Part shown: piece by piece, positions 23,554 to 32,000 of the stretch
How the letters are laid out: the number at the start of each line of letters is the position of its first letter
Numbering within the stretch: the stretch's first letter is position 1
Source: Candidatus Saccharimonadota bacterium
GTDB taxonomy: Bacteria > Patescibacteriota > Gracilibacteria > BD1-5 > UBA2023
NCBI GenBank assembly: GCA_042852035.1
Contig: BAAFHK010000002.1
Location: 1-32,000, forward strand
Length of the DNA stretch: 32,000 nucleotides
Reading direction: 5' to 3'
Made by a program: the position numbers and the translations under genes
Notes under the pieces: generated by a model
Database searches by the model: none
Told to the model about the DNA's origin: nothing
What the model saw: the letters and a program-made list of their open reading frames with translations, nothing else

Positions 23554-23646
23554 GGTGGGTTACTCAAGTGGCTGAAGAGGCGGGTTTGCTAAACCTGTAG
23601 GGTGCCGCAAGGTGCCGCCGGGGTTCGAATCCCCGGCCCACCGCCA
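23554..23646 (+). tRNA. tRNA-Ser (anticodon GCU), encoded CCA
   Basis: GGTGGGT acceptor pairs with GCCCACC. Anticodon arm CGGGT-TTGCTAA-ACCTG, long variable arm, T-arm CGGGG-TTCGAAT-CCCCG. 93 nt. Confidence 0.9.
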
Positions 23647-25415
23647 TAAAGGTCAATATCCGAAGAAGAAGTCAGTAATGGCTTCTTTTTCTTGTTTTTA
23701 GAGTTCGAACCTTCCATTATGCTTATGTCAGTCTTTTTGGGGTCTATTAGAACCCCACGTTTATAAATACCCTTAAATAAAGGCTTTAAGTCAAAATATA
23801 TAATCTCTTTGTTTTGTATAACAATACTATTAAAAATAGAAGCAGCAATATGCTGTTTTTTTCTTGGTGAAAAGTTCTTAAATCCTGTTGCTAATTCTTT
23901 CGCGTATTTTAATGGTTCTTCTATCTGTTCTTTGTTATACTCCGCCACATCATCAAAGTTATTTAATCTATTTTTAATTTCTTCAATATCTCTTTTAATC
24001 TTTTTGATGGCAATTCCTAATTCCTCAATCATATCATCATCAGTTTCTTTTCCATATCGCTTTACATAGAGTTCTTTTTCACTTTCCAAGCGTCCTAATT
24101 CTTGGTTGAGTTTATGTTTTGTATCCTCTTGGAGCTTTCACTGTTTTTCTAATTCAAACTGAATTACTTTTTCTAACATCTTCAAATCAAAAGCGTTTAG
24201 TTTTAATTTTGATATTACTTTATCAAAAATCATATCTTCTAATCGTGTTCCAGAAATTGATGTTTTATCACAAAGAGTTTTATCATTACAAGAACAACGA
24301 TAATATTGATATCGTTGAACCTTTTTCTTTTTGGTTTCTGCTGTATAGAAACGAAGTGTTTTATACAATTCTGGGTGTTCTTTATTCTGACAAGAACATT
24401 GAGTTATTCACTTCCAAACATATATCTCACCATCATCCAGCCATTTCCCACGACTTCATACTGTATTTCATTCGCGCACATTTTTACAAGCATCAAATAA
24501 CTTTTTGTCGATAAGTTTTGGATATGCTCCTAATTGATCCAATAATTCTGTATATTCAACAAAAGCAAAATTACCTTTCTCTATTTTAAGTTCAGGGTAT
24601 TTTTCTAATAAATATTCTATTTTTTCAGTGGTTAATTTCTTGTATTTCACAACCACTCTTCACCAATAAAACTCATTACATAAAATACGTTCTATTTCGT
24701 GTCTATCAAAATCATATAAAATCTCTTCTCACTTCTTAATGGTATATCTTTTATATCATCTCTTTTTGAATTCATCAGTAAGGCTATCGTAGGTATATTT
24801 TCCAGTGCTATATAACTCAAAACATTCCTTTACTACTTTTGCGGCATCGTGATTGTTATCAAATGCTACAAAATTATTATCTTTTTTTCCGATACTTATG
24901 TATCCATATGGCATATTACCCGCTATACGTCATTTTTTATATGTCTGATCCATATTTATGATACTTTCCAGCGACTTTTCTTTGCTATCAAACATTGCCT
25001 CATTAAGGAGTTCCACAAAAGCCCTTTTTCAATCTAAACTTCCGCAGTCAATCAGTCTTTCTTTTTTGGATAATACTTTAATCTTATCGTCCAAAACTAA
25101 CTGTGTTATGTCATTTCCTTCTTCAAAGTTTCGTGATAATCGCGAAATAAAATACACATAGATATAATCCACCTTTTTTCATATACCTTTAATATTTCTC
25201 TTTCTTACTTCATCCAGCATATTACTAAATTGGTCTCGTTTTCATTCAGTATATGCTGACTTATTATCTTGAAAACTTCAAATAATCTCAAATCATTTTT
25301 TTTCACATATCTCCGTCAATTCCTCTAATTGTTTATCAATAGATATCGAAGTATCTCGGTTTTTCTCACTACTACGGCGAGCATAGATAAAAACGGTAGG
25401 CTTTTTATTATTCAT
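23589..25415 (-). CDS. Large serine recombinase (integrase type)
   Basis: Hand translation gives 608 codons with about 14 in-frame TGA = Gly. The N-terminal resolvase domain is VFIYARRSSEKNRDTSISIDKQLEEL..KKGFEIIGSFQDNKSAYTEGKRDQF..VDYIYVYFISRLSRN. There is a recombinase domain, a zinc-ribbon-like segment QCSCQ..YYRCSCNDKTLC, then a coiled coil. The TAG stop at 23589-23591 lies inside the tRNA-Ser gene on the antisense strand. Confidence 0.8.
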
Positions 25416-25423
25416 AAGATTTT

Positions 25424-25810
25424 TTAGTTATGTCTTTCATATTGCTTTATATATTCTTCTGGGTCTTTTCGCCATTGTTTCATAAGTTTTATAAATGAAC
25501 TTCGATAATGTATCATCATAATTAACAAGGCTTTTCATAATAACTCGTTCCTTTGTTCCTCAGTAATTGTATTAGTATCTACCGCGATATTTCATATTCA
25601 AATCTGTTTTTCACCAACTTGCCCAAGCATACCAATAACGATACGGTATCTTACCATCATCGTTCATCTTCATAAATCTTGATAATTCTTGGCTATCATT
25701 CGGGCTTCTTCATATGATAATACTCATCAATGATTTCTATCATTTTCATCTAAAATAGACGCTATTATACTATCTAATAATTTTTCCTCCGCAGACTGAT
25801 ATGTTGGCAT
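25424..25810 (-). CDS. Hypothetical protein (128 aa), directly upstream of the recombinase
   Basis: The frame is open for 128 codons in very AT-rich DNA if 7 TGA codons are read as Gly. ATG at 25808-25810, TAA at 25424-25426, and 8 nt before the recombinase start. No recognisable motif. Confidence 0.45.
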
Positions 25811-26227
25811 AATTTCTAACTTAATGAAGTAAATACTATGATTATATACATTAGTTAGAAAATACAACTTTTTCATCTTTTCAAAAGTTAAGTCTTAAAT
25901 ATTTTATTCTGATTTCAGCGGGAAGGTCATACCCGATATAGTAAAACCTCCCTTAAAACCATATCAAGTATGCCATTAAATAGTCAGTCACTGCCACTCA
26001 GTCAAAAAATGACTTATCGCCTGTTTGTCTTTCCCCAAAACATCGATATTTAACCAAATCCATCCTATTCAGATTTCATATGGGTCAGGAATACCTCGCA
26101 TTATTGGCACATTGCGACCCCGTGATTGTAGTTTTATATCCCGACAGGCTCACTACGCAGGGACGGTTGTTTTTACTCAACCAGCCATATTTGATGAATA
26201 GAACACTTTTAACTTTTTTTCAAACAG

Positions 26228-26253
26228 AAATCTTGAAAAAGAAGATTTTTTTT
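26228..26253 (+). terminator. Hairpin plus T-run (terminator-like)
   Basis: aaatctt / aagattt stem with loop gaaaaag, followed by tttttttatttttctttttt. Confidence 0.45.
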
Positions 26254-26391
26254 ATTTTTCTTTTTTGAAAATACCATTTTTTTCCTTTACCTGTGCGGTT
26301 TCGTGTTATCACGAAAAATAAAAAGAAAAAATCATTTGAGAAAATTATAAAAGTGTCGTATCAGAAAATACTACCTTTTAACTTTTCTTAT

Positions 26392-26889
26392 ATGAACCAA
26401 GAAACAAAACTCCAATCTATAACACTGGAAGATATCAATACTAATACCATTACCAAACATACTTGAAGCGATTGATTTGATGGTTCATCATTTATTTGAA
26501 TAGGACTATTGTTTCTTTTCCTTATTTATATGCTTCACGATGGCAGTAATAACTCAAATACCTCTTCATCTTCAAAACCTTCAAATCAAAATAAGAAATG
26601 AATAAAACTTGATAATAATGAAAAGAAATTATCGGATAAAGTTCGTGCCTTGGAAATGACGCTTAAAAACTTGGAATTAAAAAAGCGTGAAGCTGAAGGT
26701 GAAATCAGAAAAATTGAAATGAATAGCTTATCTCAAACTGACACCGAAGCCACTTATGATAATGAATTCAAAATAGACAAACTTACTATGAAAATAGAAG
26801 AAATCGAAATGATGATAGAAAAGAAAAATGAAGAGCTGGAAGACGCAAAAATAAAACTTGAACAATATCAAAACGAAAACTATTTATAA
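26392..26889 (+). CDS. Membrane-anchored coiled-coil protein, hypothetical
   Basis: ATG 26392 joins track ORF 26650 through 4 TGA codons. TM segment FIGIGLLFLFLIYML, a Ser/Asn-rich linker, then heptad-like KVRALEMTLKNLELKKREAEGEIRKIE... The frame is also open upstream to 25984, so the start is uncertain. Confidence 0.55.
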
Positions 26890-26905
26890 CCTAACAAAAA
26901 TACAT

Positions 26906-30655: not shown

Positions 30656-30725
30656 AGCCAGCCAGCCAGCCAGCCAGCCAGCCAGCCAGCCAGCCAGCCA
30701 GCCAGCCAGCCAGCCAGCCAAGCCA
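30656..30725. repeat. Tetranucleotide microsatellite (AGCC)16 plus one offset extra unit
   Basis: There are 16 perfect AGCC units at 30656-30719, then a single A and one more AGCC. The repeat is intergenic, between the stop at 30569 and the promoter at 30776. Confidence 0.95.
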
Positions 30726-30775
30726 TTCTTGATACTTCGTAATCAAAATAAGAACACATAATCCCATCTGATATA

Positions 30776-30803
30776 TTGACAAAATAATTATATAGACTAT
30801 AAT
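30776..30803 (+). promoter_or_regulatory. Consensus sigma70-like promoter for the gene starting at 30838
   Basis: TTGACA (30776-30781), a 16-nt spacer, then TATAAT (30798-30803), 35 nt upstream of ATG 30838. Confidence 0.55.
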
Positions 30804-30837
30804 GGAACGGTAATTTTTATTTTCTTACATATTCGCT

Positions 30838-31596
30838 ATGAACTTTCAAGAACAACTTCGTTATGATAAACTTCAACTTATGAAGTCAAGACGACAAAAA
30901 AGAGCAACTTCAACTGTTCAGGCAACAACAGAAACAACAAAAGTTGCCGTTGAATGACCAAAAACCATAGAAATCGCAGGCAAGAAAATCCTTGCGATGC
31001 CACTTGAAACTATGGCACTCACCCCAGAACAACAAAAGAAGTTTGAAGAAGCAGGTGGTCTTATGAACCCTGCGCCAAAAATAGCAACAGCAGATAAAAA
31101 TCAAGACAAGATGATGTATTGGTCTGAAAGTTTTGAAACACTTCAAGCAGAAATCGACGGAACGCTTTACAAGGGTTTTGACCTCTTCAAAAAAGTTTAT
31201 GAAGCATTCCCAGATATTCGTTCTATGACAAAAGGCGAAGCCACAGAAGCAGGACTTTACCCAACTATTCATTACCGCAACTTTGCCGCTCGCAAATGGA
31301 TGGCAGAGATGAACGGCGGACACCTTGCTACTTTGGATAAGGATTATAATGGCGAACTCCGTGATATCTTTAACGCAGCAGAAGGAAAAACAAACCTTGA
31401 AAAACTCGCTGCTATGGGTCAAGCACCGCTTGGCTGACGTTATGCTAATGATGCGAAGGTGTATTACTTGGGGGATTGGGCGGGATTGGGTTCTGGCTCG
31501 CTCAATGGTGATGGTGATGTCCGCGTGTTGGGCGCGCACCGTGATAAGGTCGGGCGCTGACAATTACTGATATTGGCAGGGGAGCGCTGTCAGTAG
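30838..31596 (+). CDS. Candidate DGR target protein with a GC-rich C-terminal putative variable region
   Basis: ATG 30838 joins track ORF 30997 through TGA 30955, continues through TGA 31435 and 31558, and ends at TAG 31594-31596. The C-terminal segment FAARKWMAEMNGGHLATLDKDYNGELRDIF ... AKVYYLGDWAGLGSGSLNGDGDVRVLGAHR resembles the ligand-binding end of C-type-lectin/DUF1566-type DGR targets. The local GC content is far above the surrounding element. Confidence 0.55.
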
Positions 31597-31697
31597 TGTC
31601 GTTGTATTGGATAAATAGTCTCTTTGACACTTTGTCTCTTTTGGTTTCAGAAAATCGTATATACAGTTAATTTTGAAGTCTATATAACAGATGGGAT

Positions 31698-31719
31698 ATC
31701 CGCTTTATGCGGATTTTTC
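31698..31719 (+). terminator. Rho-independent terminator / hairpin
   Basis: atccgc / gcggat stem with loop tttat, followed by a T-run. Confidence 0.55.
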
Positions 31720-31744
31720 TGTATTTCTTCATTTCAAAAACCGT

Positions 31745-32000
31745 ATGGCTACTTATGACCTTCTTCCTGTATATAAGACAACCTATGATTTTCTATTACA
31801 GACTTTTCAATTTTCAAAAACATTTACCCGTGAATACAAATACACTATCTGACAAGAACTCAAAAATGAAACCATACGACTCATACTGGCAATATATCGT
31901 GCCAATGGATCACAAGCAAAAAGATATGAACTCCTTGATGATGCTCGGACAACATTGGAAACCATACGACTTCTTTTGCGTCTGACAAAAGACCTAAAAC
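31745..32000 (+). CDS. Avd-like four-helix-bundle protein (DGR accessory variability determinant / S23-IVS family), partial at the window end
   Basis: MATYDLLPVYKTTYDFLLQTFQFSKTFTREYKYTI-G-QELKNETIRLILAIYRANGSQAKRYELLDDARTTLETIRLLLRLTKDLK fits the remembered pattern lP.y.k..d....i......fP...ry.lG..l......l...i..An........L..a...l..lr.llrla.dlk. The Gly in the lG position is encoded by TGA at 31850-31852. Confidence 0.6.

Follow-up and report, generated by a model that had tools for sequence, protein, structure and literature searches.

The window analysed here is a stretch of 32,000 nucleotides from a bacterium of the Gracilibacteria (Candidatus Saccharimonadota bacterium, contig BAAFHK010000002.1, positions 1 to 32,000). 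It contains a tRNA-Ser(GCU) gene at 23554–23646 on the plus strand, called by ARAGORN, and what follows, from 23647 to beyond 32000, is very probably a site-specific integrative element, of which the window covers the left ~8.35 kb. The element is inserted at this tRNA, carries a large serine recombinase (LSR) gene that is apparently split by the insertion, appears to hold a diversity-generating retroelement (DGR) as cargo and is written in genetic code 25. The window as a whole belongs to a code-25 genome, and its long genes, such as the 1395-amino-acid open reading frame (ORF) at 3385–7572, assemble only when TGA is read as sense.

The composition of the DNA changes after the tRNA. The GC content, taken in 1-kb intervals, is 0.41–0.49 at 20–23.5 kb as opposed to 0.285–0.33 at 24–30 kb, and is again 0.40–0.41 by 31 kb. 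The strand-symmetric tetranucleotide distance to the host mean is 42–50 in the segment, compared with 18.6 ± 2.6 and a maximum of 26 in host intervals, and host-like GC and TGA usage resume from about 30.0–30.6 kb. These profiles bear out the compositional break that an earlier inspection of the sequence (the original prediction) had placed after the tRNA, and the break is large. The switch in gene content claimed at the same point is found as well: no gene at 23.6–32 kb has a counterpart in the flanks of the relatives retrieved through the flanking RNase J gene (window 21310–23178), which yielded 22 Gracilibacteria loci. Loci are designated by L numbers where they have to be told apart. Composition was rejected as a marker of the boundary: in the window GC and TGA share tell element and host clearly apart, but in other hosts they do not, and the last core gene of the element is itself host-like. 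Rfam models gave zero matches at the gathering threshold over 23–32 kb, class II tRNA-Ser included; the tRNA-Ser missed by Rfam is nevertheless called by ARAGORN and varies hardly at all among 12 genomes.

The first gene after the tRNA, at 23589–25415 on the minus strand, encodes an LSR, as had been predicted, which is 608 residues long in its integrated form and contains 13 in-frame TGAs. Pfam recognises a Resolvase domain (PF00239, 8.1e-16, residues 8–136) and a Recombinase domain (PF07508, 1.5e-11, residues 190–316), and the protein matches the integrase family PHROG 95 over residues 2–539 (2.3e-47). The match to Zn_ribbon_recom (PF13408; 2e-3, 18.8 bits) falls under the curated cut-off of 25.3; Cys340, Cys342, Cys374 and Cys382 are invariant among 11 homologs and Cys376 nearly so. 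The catalytic motifs Y11 A12 R13 R14 S15 (YARRS) and S91 R92 L93 R95 (SRL.R) are invariant across the same homologs.

The LSR belongs to an isolated clade. Its close relatives form only ten protein clusters (E ≤ 3e-69), the next match being at 1e-12; in the phage set no integrase exceeds 28% identity, and the sole PDB match is the catalytic domain of TP901-1 (2e-4). On readable contigs all members of the clade are convergent with a tRNA gene and overlap its 3′ end. The target is tRNA-Ser(gct) in the window and in L081, L083, L097 and L098, tRNA-Gln(ttg) in L084 and L088, tRNA-Gln(ctg) in L093 and tRNA-Trp(cca) in L090. Judging from this family membership, the LSR of the element is presumably the enzyme that performed the integration. 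None of these recombinases has a stop codon of its own before the tRNA, and all end in tails read from the tRNA antisense strand (‘G.G.IRT...’), which vary in length from 8 to ~45 residues. In the window codons 1–590 come from the element, while the last 18 residues (GGGPGIRTPAAPCGTLQV) come from the tRNA antisense strand (19 codons), with the stop codon overlapping the anticodon, so that the integrated form ends ...GIRTPAAPCGTLQV.

The same site is found empty in 10 related Gracilibacteria genomes, where tRNA-Ser(GCU), conserved across 12 Gracilibacteria loci, is followed by tRNA-Met(CAT) within 3–150 nt. Ten empty sites thus stand against six occupied ones (the window, L081, L083, L097, L098 and a remnant in L094). 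In the window no tRNA-Met follows the tRNA-Ser, and that tRNA-Met is nowhere in the window. The copy in L083, which holds the closest LSR homolog (P0001), lies beside the same tRNA and is 96.65% identical in nucleotide sequence and gapless over window positions 23553–26120; for the neighbouring RNase J genes the identity is no more than 75.4%, and this difference indicates horizontal movement. In L098 the element is 83% identical to that of the window and RNase J 74%, while in L097 the element, again at tRNA-Ser, is preceded by another flank; the L097 and L098 copies are 81–83% identical to the window. The comparison gives direct evidence for horizontal mobility among divergent Gracilibacteria, to which the element family is restricted as far as seen. 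The reading of the segment as a mobile element at tRNA-Ser(GCU), put forward in the original prediction, is accordingly supported by the empty sites in 10 relatives, by the compositional break and by the copies in divergent hosts. The opposite picture, which it had also named, of a conserved gene order lacking both empty sites and a discontinuity, is not what these genomes present, as empty alleles and the break are both found.

Serine integrases recombine attP with attB, the attachment sites of element and host, at a 2-bp crossover within sites of ~40–50 bp. In the window the intact tRNA-Ser gene (23554–23646) forms the host side of the left junction, attL, and its last 6 nt, CCGCCA (23641–23646), which include the encoded CCA, are the core common to attL and the right junction, attR. 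The left end of the element, the P′ arm, lies at 23647–23700 (TAAAGGTCAATATCCGAAGAAGAAGTCAGTAATGGC...); it is near-identical in L083 and recognisable in L081, and the high-identity alignments to L083, L097 and L098 span both the tRNA and this arm. Between the window and L083 the host-specific T-stem and acceptor differ (CGGGG/CCCCGGCCC as opposed to GAGGG/CCCTCATCC), and the two loci are near-identical from the CCACCGCCA-TAAAGGTC junction rightward. Because the T-stem/acceptor variant differs in spite of elements that are 96.7% identical, this part of the tRNA is derived from the host. A T-arm supplied by the element was considered, as the T-stem variant of the window is unlike that of most relatives, and rejected, since the nearly identical element of L083 abuts the other variant and the empty-site locus L012 has the variant of the window.

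The far end of the element is reached by three loci, L081, L094 and L084, and a conserved block is common to all three. In L081 attR reads ...CTAACGTTTTAGCG-CCGCCA-GTGTCAGG... (the left of the core also written TTTTAGCG), and in L094 ...CTAACTTTTTAGCA-CCGCCA-TGTTTCTTAG... (the left also TTTTAGCA, with the spacer TGTTTC), followed by the first 33 nt of tRNA-Met. In L084, inserted at tRNA-Gln, the far end reads ...CCCCGTAGTT-CAGCCATA-CGTGATCC..., and its attL and attR share CAGCCATA. Since attL and attR share the last 6–8 nt of the tRNA including the CCA, the crossover lies within that core. From core to core the element measures 6.8 kb in L081 and 10.8 kb in L084, both of which have both junctions. 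The rebuilt attP contains ...TTTTAGCACCGCCATAAAGGTCAATATCC... / ...TTTTAGCACCGCCATAAAGGTCAATATCCGAAG... and the rebuilt attB ...CCCACCGCCATGTTTC... / ...CCCCGGCCCACCGCCATGTTTC..., and the attB rebuilt from L081 matches natural empty sites. Comparison of the loci in this way shows insertion at tRNA-Ser within CCGCCA. The element has separated tRNA-Ser(GCU) from its usual downstream neighbour, tRNA-Met, and recombination within the last six nucleotides of the tRNA gene has left the tRNA intact.

Two other candidates for repeats at the ends were rejected. A 20-bp repeat in L081, AATCCCCGACCCACCGCCAT, belongs to an older pseudo-tRNA scar, which recurs in the empty-site spacers of L009 and L020; attR proper lies about 80 nt upstream of this repeat in L081, at the conserved P arm. 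A search for a direct repeat or a displaced fragment of the tRNA-Ser 3′ end in 23.7–32 kb of the window gave nothing above chance. Degenerate copies of the tRNA-Ser 3′ end are present in the empty-site spacers of L009 (~12040–12180), L020 (~13095–13245) and L006 (~11130–11240) and in L081 (~563–650), and they precede the same TGTTTCAG that follows the real tRNA. These pseudo-tRNA copies are read from their sequence as scars of older integrations, with the locus as a long-standing hotspot. In L006, 7 kb of ordinary-looking genes (11126–18192) separate tRNA-Ser from tRNA-Met, among them ferric-reductase-like and ApbE-like genes, a large Thr/Pro-rich protein and a two-component system, and no recombinase; the interval may represent an island whose integrase is gone.

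When attL and attR are joined in silico through the shared core, the LSR reading frame stays open in L081 and in L084 independently. The circularised protein grows from 607 to 619 residues in L081, ending ...NGGAKTLVLELFIKAIKNQTVLDLREIYENS before the stop, and from 594 to 616 residues in L084, ending ...YGGTTGSVLELFVRALKTDTVSELRRIYENS. The P′ arm of the window combined with the P arm of L094 is also in frame and gives 629 residues (...LYGGAKKLVLELFLQGIKVETVLALREIYEND...). The tails are homologous with mostly conservative replacements, and L081 and L084 stop at the same codon although their LSRs are only ~50% identical and their tRNAs differ. The integrase gene is thus likely to be split by integration. 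In this mechanism attP would lie inside the integrase gene, and the ORF of the free circle would cross attP and end ‘...VLELF..A(I/L)K..TV..LR.IYEN..’; integration would strand the last ~25–30 integrase codons at the attR end, and the integrated gene would gain a short tRNA-antisense tail in their place.

The block of ~110 nt next to attR could instead be conserved as DNA, as an attP arm together with a promoter or terminator, in which case the in-frame continuation would be coincidental and the integrase would have no fixed C-terminus, terminating wherever a stop occurs. This explanation is possible but doubtful. The codon-position bias in the tail is weak, with 8/7/11, 5/5/9 and 8/10/10 differences at positions 1/2/3, which counts against the split gene, and the weak third-position excess means that part of the tail conservation may be at the DNA level, in an attP arm or promoter. 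TTGAC-like promoter motifs occur within the block, and integrated proteins with tRNA-derived tails as different as those described above all seem to be maintained. However, the two independent reconstructions, each made from its own attL and attR, are both in frame and reach the same stop after homologous peptides, the changes are conservative (I/V, K/R, D/E, I/L) with 4–5 purely synonymous ones per pair, and the length of the block is about four times that of an LSR half-site, given the ~40–50 bp total of att sites known in general. A split of this kind also has a precedent in streptococcal integrative and conjugative elements (ICEs) (PMC4701971).

The element is also distinct in its use of TGA. 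In its nine core genes, from the LSR to 30569, 42 TGAs are found against 65 GGN codons, so that TGA makes up 39% of the glycine codons, whereas eight verified host genes have 19 TGAs against 286 GGN codons, or 6%. When homologous elements are aligned, an in-frame TGA stands opposite GGN in 60 cases and TGG in one, opposite another TGA in 160 and opposite other codons in 54, and TGG codons align with TGG in 42 of 55 cases. As TGA aligns with GGN and hardly ever with TGG, it stands for glycine in the element, and these alignments show that the element is written in code 25, not in code 4, which agrees with the original prediction. With at least one in-frame TGA in every core gene, expression should be possible only in code-25 hosts, and with about 40% of the core glycine codons being TGA the element should be unreadable outside them. 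The predicted TGA counts are exact for the 179-residue membrane protein described below (five) and slightly high for the recombinase, for which ‘about 14’ had been given. The further idea of a mobilome confined to recoded lineages is supported in so far as the lock to code 25 is concerned; it is not new, since such a lock of integrated elements in Gracilibacteria and Absconditabacteria lineages has already been reported for prophages (Liu et al. 2023, PMC10746230).

The core genes recur in L081, L084, L093, L096, L097 and L098. The core consists of the LSR with a co-oriented gene for a protein of ~130–150 residues and, on the opposite strand, genes for a protein of ~165–205 residues with a transmembrane segment and a coiled-coil-like region, a protein of 236 residues, one of ~115–140 residues, a membrane protein with a J domain, a variable membrane protein and two secreted proteins. 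The co-oriented protein, encoded upstream of the LSR at 25424–25876 on the minus strand, has 150 residues in the window, with 7 TGAs, and is 32–82% identical among the copies. Its gene adjoins the LSR in L081, L083, L084, L093, L096, L097 and L098. It has no Pfam or PHROG match and is a candidate regulator or recombination directionality factor (RDF).

The divergent intergenic region of 515 bp between this integrase operon and the rightward genes (25877–26391) lies within the 79–83% nucleotide alignments to L096, L098 and L081. It contains nested inverted repeats, I6 and I11, with arms of 27–31 nt at 26198–26361, as a candidate operator or origin, and probably serves the element as its control region.

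To the right of it all genes are on the plus strand. The first (26392–26889) encodes the 165-residue protein with the transmembrane segment and coiled-coil-like region (4 TGAs), which is 59–78% identical to its homologs in L081, L084, L093, L096, L097 and L098 and matches no Pfam or PHROG family. The 236-residue protein (26903–27616; 5 TGAs) is the best conserved after the LSR, with homologs in 15 clusters only, at 50–88% identity. In its AlphaFold model the predicted local distance difference test score (pLDDT) is 82–93 for residues 155–234 and poor elsewhere, and the top Foldseek matches are all winged helix-turn-helix regulators, none of them significant (best E = 0.36). The C-terminal 80 residues are therefore modelled with confidence as a winged helix, DNA-binding-like in character. 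The next protein, of ~141 residues (27928–28353; 3 TGAs), whose start codon is uncertain, is 60% identical to the product of a 129-residue gene in L084 and more weakly similar to one in L098. It is followed by a 212-residue protein (28359–28997; 3 TGAs) with an N-terminal DnaJ (J) domain (Pfam DnaJ, 1.6e-7) and a C-terminal membrane region, which is 62% identical to a protein in L098 that is also called DnaJ. A polytopic membrane protein of 179 residues (29009–29548; 5 TGAs) occupies a variable slot, filled in L098 by a 310-residue gene. Two proteins with signal peptides complete the core, with one TGA each: one of 125 residues (29584–29961), which is 75% identical in L098, about 50% in L084 and L096 and 35% in L081, and one of 186 residues (30009–30569; GC 0.37), the last gene of the conserved core, 84% identical in L098 and about 50% in L084 and L096.

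Beyond the core the window contains a perfect (AGCC)16 microsatellite at 30656–30722, which marks the boundary between core and cargo and lies ~50 nt upstream of a TTGACA/TATAAT-like promoter. L096 has only 6 AGCC units at the same place. The repeat could be a phase-variable contingency locus that controls the DGR target gene that follows, or a seam at which core and cargo are prone to recombine. A DGR cassette, 89.5% identical in nucleotide sequence to one in L094, takes up the last 1.2 kb of the window (30759–32000). On the plus strand it contains the gene for the DGR target, or variable, protein (30838–31596; 252 residues, 48 homolog clusters), with the variable region (VR) at 31426–31614, and the gene for the accessory protein bAvd (31746–32000), which is cut by the window end and recognised on 85 residues (PF22296, 2.2e-9). 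In L094 the order is target, full-length and annotated bAvd, template repeat (TR, at 4992–5179) and reverse transcriptase (RT; RVT_1). Between the TR of L094 and the VR of the window, 18 of 25 mismatches are at TR adenines, which make up 27% of the TR bases; in the TR–VR pair of L094 itself the figure is 17 of 22. An inverted repeat of 30 nt (80% complementary) brackets the target gene at 30761–30790 and 31668–31697, with one arm over the target promoter and the other between the target stop and bAvd, so that a duplicated promoter or an invertible segment is possible.

The content after the core varies among the copies. L081 has different small genes there and no recognisable cargo module. L098 has CsoR-like, 179-residue, DUF305, two DsbA, DUF3703 and cation-efflux genes; of these, the CsoR-like, 179-residue and DUF305 genes recur in L084 at 92–98% amino acid identity, with an AAA_15 ATPase in addition. 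Restriction-modification genes are found in L093 and L090, and the DGR in the window and in L096. The near-identical cargo of L098 (14409–16216) and L084 (3394–5203) accompanies integrases that are ~50% identical and different target tRNAs, Ser and Gln, which points to a recent swap of cargo modules between elements. Wherever the far end is reached, the element closes with a 131-residue gene followed by the block of integrase tail and P arm. The 131-residue protein is 96% identical between L081 and L084, ~60% at the edge of L098, beyond the metal-resistance genes, and 65% in L094, where its gene comes directly after the DGR RT. By this comparison the element shows an architecture of core, cargo and distal module, in which the integrase and eight small orphan genes would be followed by a variable cargo slot, occupied here by the DGR, and by a distal module made of the 131-residue gene, the integrase tail and the P arm.

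The recovery of the GC content near 30.5 kb is most likely due to cargo, as opposed to the element ending there. The alternative is an element of only about 7 kb, ending at 30570–30758 near the (AGCC)n repeat, with the DGR from 30759 belonging to the host chromosome and brought adjacent by a later rearrangement that removed attR and tRNA-Met. Homology to L098 does end exactly at 30569, the stop codon of the 186-residue gene, and homology to L094 begins exactly at 30759; the DGR target is host-like in GC (0.39–0.44) and TGA share (12%), the complete relative L081 is only 6.8 kb long without a DGR, and the DGR of L094 adjoins housekeeping genes. A 7-kb element is nonetheless quite unlikely, as the 189-bp interval contains neither the 131-residue gene nor a P-arm block or integrase tail. 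L096 aligns collinearly with the window, starting at the LSR and reaching into the DGR target, and keeps the order of core, (AGCC)n and DGR at 79–85% identity, and other cargo occupies the same slot in L098 and L084. In L094, moreover, the DGR has on its right the distal module, attR and what remains of a tRNA-Met (the sequence runs P arm, CCGCCA, spacer TGTTTC, 33 nt of tRNA-Met), which places it between the two parts of the integrase gene. The tRNA-Met remnant itself (7024–7110) is identical over 33 nt, lacks the CA of the anticodon loop and is diverged in the rest. Locus L094 appears to be a decayed or rearranged copy: it keeps the DGR together with the distal module, lacks the LSR core and has ApbE as its left neighbour.

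The DGR of the window is most likely cargo of the element, given its 89.5% identity to that of L094 and the absence of the distal module from the window. The right end would then lie about 3.5 kb past 30759, near a window-equivalent position of 34.3 kb, for a total length of about 10.6 kb, and the distal end is predicted to read ...AAAAAGTTCTAA.ACTAAC.TTTTAGC.CCGCCA, followed by a TGTTTC-like spacer and tRNA-Met(CAT) GGGCCTATAGCTCAG. Attempts to extend the contig of the window gave only a 3.3-kb contig ending before the tRNA with an RNase J query, and three short contigs in a metagenome scan. One contig, L082 (Logan DRR350540, equivalent to window 19947–23228), comes from another data set, is 99.85% identical and stops some 325 nt short of tRNA-Ser; it might break off there because occupied and empty sites coexist in the population, or merely because a repeat interrupted the assembly.

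Judged by its gene content the element is not a prophage. Pfam and PHROGs recognised no virion structural or packaging gene (capsid, portal, terminase, tail), the integrase and the J domain being the only matches, and no relaxase, coupling protein or domain of a type IV secretion system (T4SS) is recognised by Pfam in the window genes or listed in the precomputed Pfam annotation of the relatives’ elements. In scans of a collection of 2.9 million viral contigs with the LSR alignment and the 186-residue protein no family member was found, and one LSR was only 25% identical. A decayed prophage or a phage satellite, dependent on a helper phage or, in this copy, no longer moving, is unlikely. It would fit the lack of any recognised replication, conjugation or packaging gene, the small size of the complete relatives (6.8–10.8 kb), the decay of the family seen in L094 and the classification as prophages of the code-25 integrated elements known from these lineages (Liu et al. 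2023, PMC10746230). It is at odds with the integrase as the only phage-like match in PHROGs, with the absence of the family from the viral contigs apart from that single distant LSR, with the gene order and LSR catalytic motifs, which are intact in at least seven copies and in the LSRs respectively, and with the 96.7% identity across divergent hosts, which indicates recent movement.

Several observations weigh against an integrative element that extends beyond the window and moves by site-specific recombination. Its right junction is unseen, with no P-arm block, 131-residue gene, tRNA-Ser remnant or tRNA-Met up to 32000, and the genes at 30.0–32 kb are host-like in GC and TGA usage. The DGR and the distal end occur in L094 without the LSR core and next to ApbE, so the DGR module also exists in a rearranged or decayed setting. 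Among the window genes no capsid, relaxase, T4SS or replication gene is recognised with Pfam or PHROGs. The rebuilt att sites show no dyad symmetry above shuffled controls, and no circular (attP) form was found in any collection and no circular contig recovered.

A second, unrelated LSR (25% identity, 578 residues, 12 TGAs) is present in L003 at 12600–14900 and runs antisense through the 3′ half of a tRNA-Met. The 5′ half of this tRNA, ending ...GTCGGCT just before the anticodon, lies ~600 bp from the 3′ half, with an HNH-like ORF between them. The arrangement could be intron-like or a nested insertion in the anticodon loop.

The closest parallel for the exchange of the integrase 3′ end is provided by the rumA-targeting streptococcal ICEs, which have a single serine integrase; one copy of their short direct repeat (2–21 bp) lies inside the integrase gene, and integration exchanges the 3′ end of that gene, altering the C-terminus (Ambroset et al. 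2016, PMC4701971). Like these ICEs, the element has an LSR with Resolvase and Recombinase domains at its edge and would exchange its 3′ end. The target of the ICEs is, however, a protein-coding gene that is also altered, as opposed to a tRNA CCA end that is left unchanged; the ICEs carry conjugation modules, of which none is recognisable here, and the LSRs are not close relatives.

The tRNA genes are classical targets of tyrosine integrases, as stated in the Islander report (PMC4383910). The element resembles the tRNA and tmRNA islands of that kind (Williams 2002) in that the 3′ part of the tRNA is targeted, the gene is kept intact through an identical terminus that the element brings with it, and the integrase is adjacent. 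Displaced tRNA fragments mark the site in both cases, here as the pseudo-tRNA-Ser 3′ scar in L009, L020 and L081. The enzyme here is nevertheless a serine and not a tyrosine recombinase, and the present insertion has left no displaced tRNA fragment. The shared core is also shorter, 6–8 nt compared with direct repeats of 12–54 bp in tyrosine-integrase ICEs (PMC4701971).

The code-25 prophages (Liu et al. 2023, PMC10746230) have portal, tail or terminase genes, while the family described here lacks them and is absent from viral contigs. The DGR itself shows nothing unusual and is of the bAvd type, with a 3′ variable region in the target, then bAvd, then TR and RT (in L094), and adenine-specific TR–VR differences; notable are its location within an LSR element and the (AGCC)n repeat that precedes its promoter. 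In the SSV1-type integrases of archaea, attP lies within the int gene, and integration partitions the gene, which is complete only in the circle. Those are tyrosine enzymes of archaeal viruses, inactivated by a split in mid-gene, whereas here only ~25–30 C-terminal codons would be swapped.

The literature search returned no description of serine-integrase elements at tRNA termini in Gracilibacteria or of the family’s att sites, target tRNAs or modular cargo, and no statistics on the use of tRNA targets by serine integrases. New are the isolated clade of serine integrases on tRNA CCA ends, the core of 6–8 nt, the modular non-phage family with a DGR among its cargo and, probably, the split of the integrase gene. 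A more speculative proposal, which at present is rather less probable than not, is that the state of the element sets two integrase isoforms, with the full-length circular form proficient in integration and the integrated form inactive or dependent on an RDF for excision. The split would then be a switch for directionality or copy control, common to a clade specialised on tRNA CCA ends, and that clade would drive a code-25-locked family that exchanges cargo (DGRs, metal resistance, restriction-modification) among Gracilibacteria.

Gracilibacteria are uncultured, recoded and probably predatory or episymbiotic bacteria, and to our knowledge almost none of their mobile elements have been described beyond a few predicted prophages. 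The integrase is unusual in that it works on tRNA ends, the classic territory of tyrosine integrases, and in that its gene would be split by integration. Modular exchange is seen in the DGR and metal-resistance modules, which are swapped between elements that use different tRNAs. The family is a natural test of the genetic code as a barrier, since ~40% of the core glycine codons are TGA, yet the element moves between hosts that are ~25% divergent in a housekeeping gene. Together with the short tRNA-CCA cores and the reconstructable attP and attB, the integrase could provide a site-specific genetic tool, which for code-25 bacteria would be the first.

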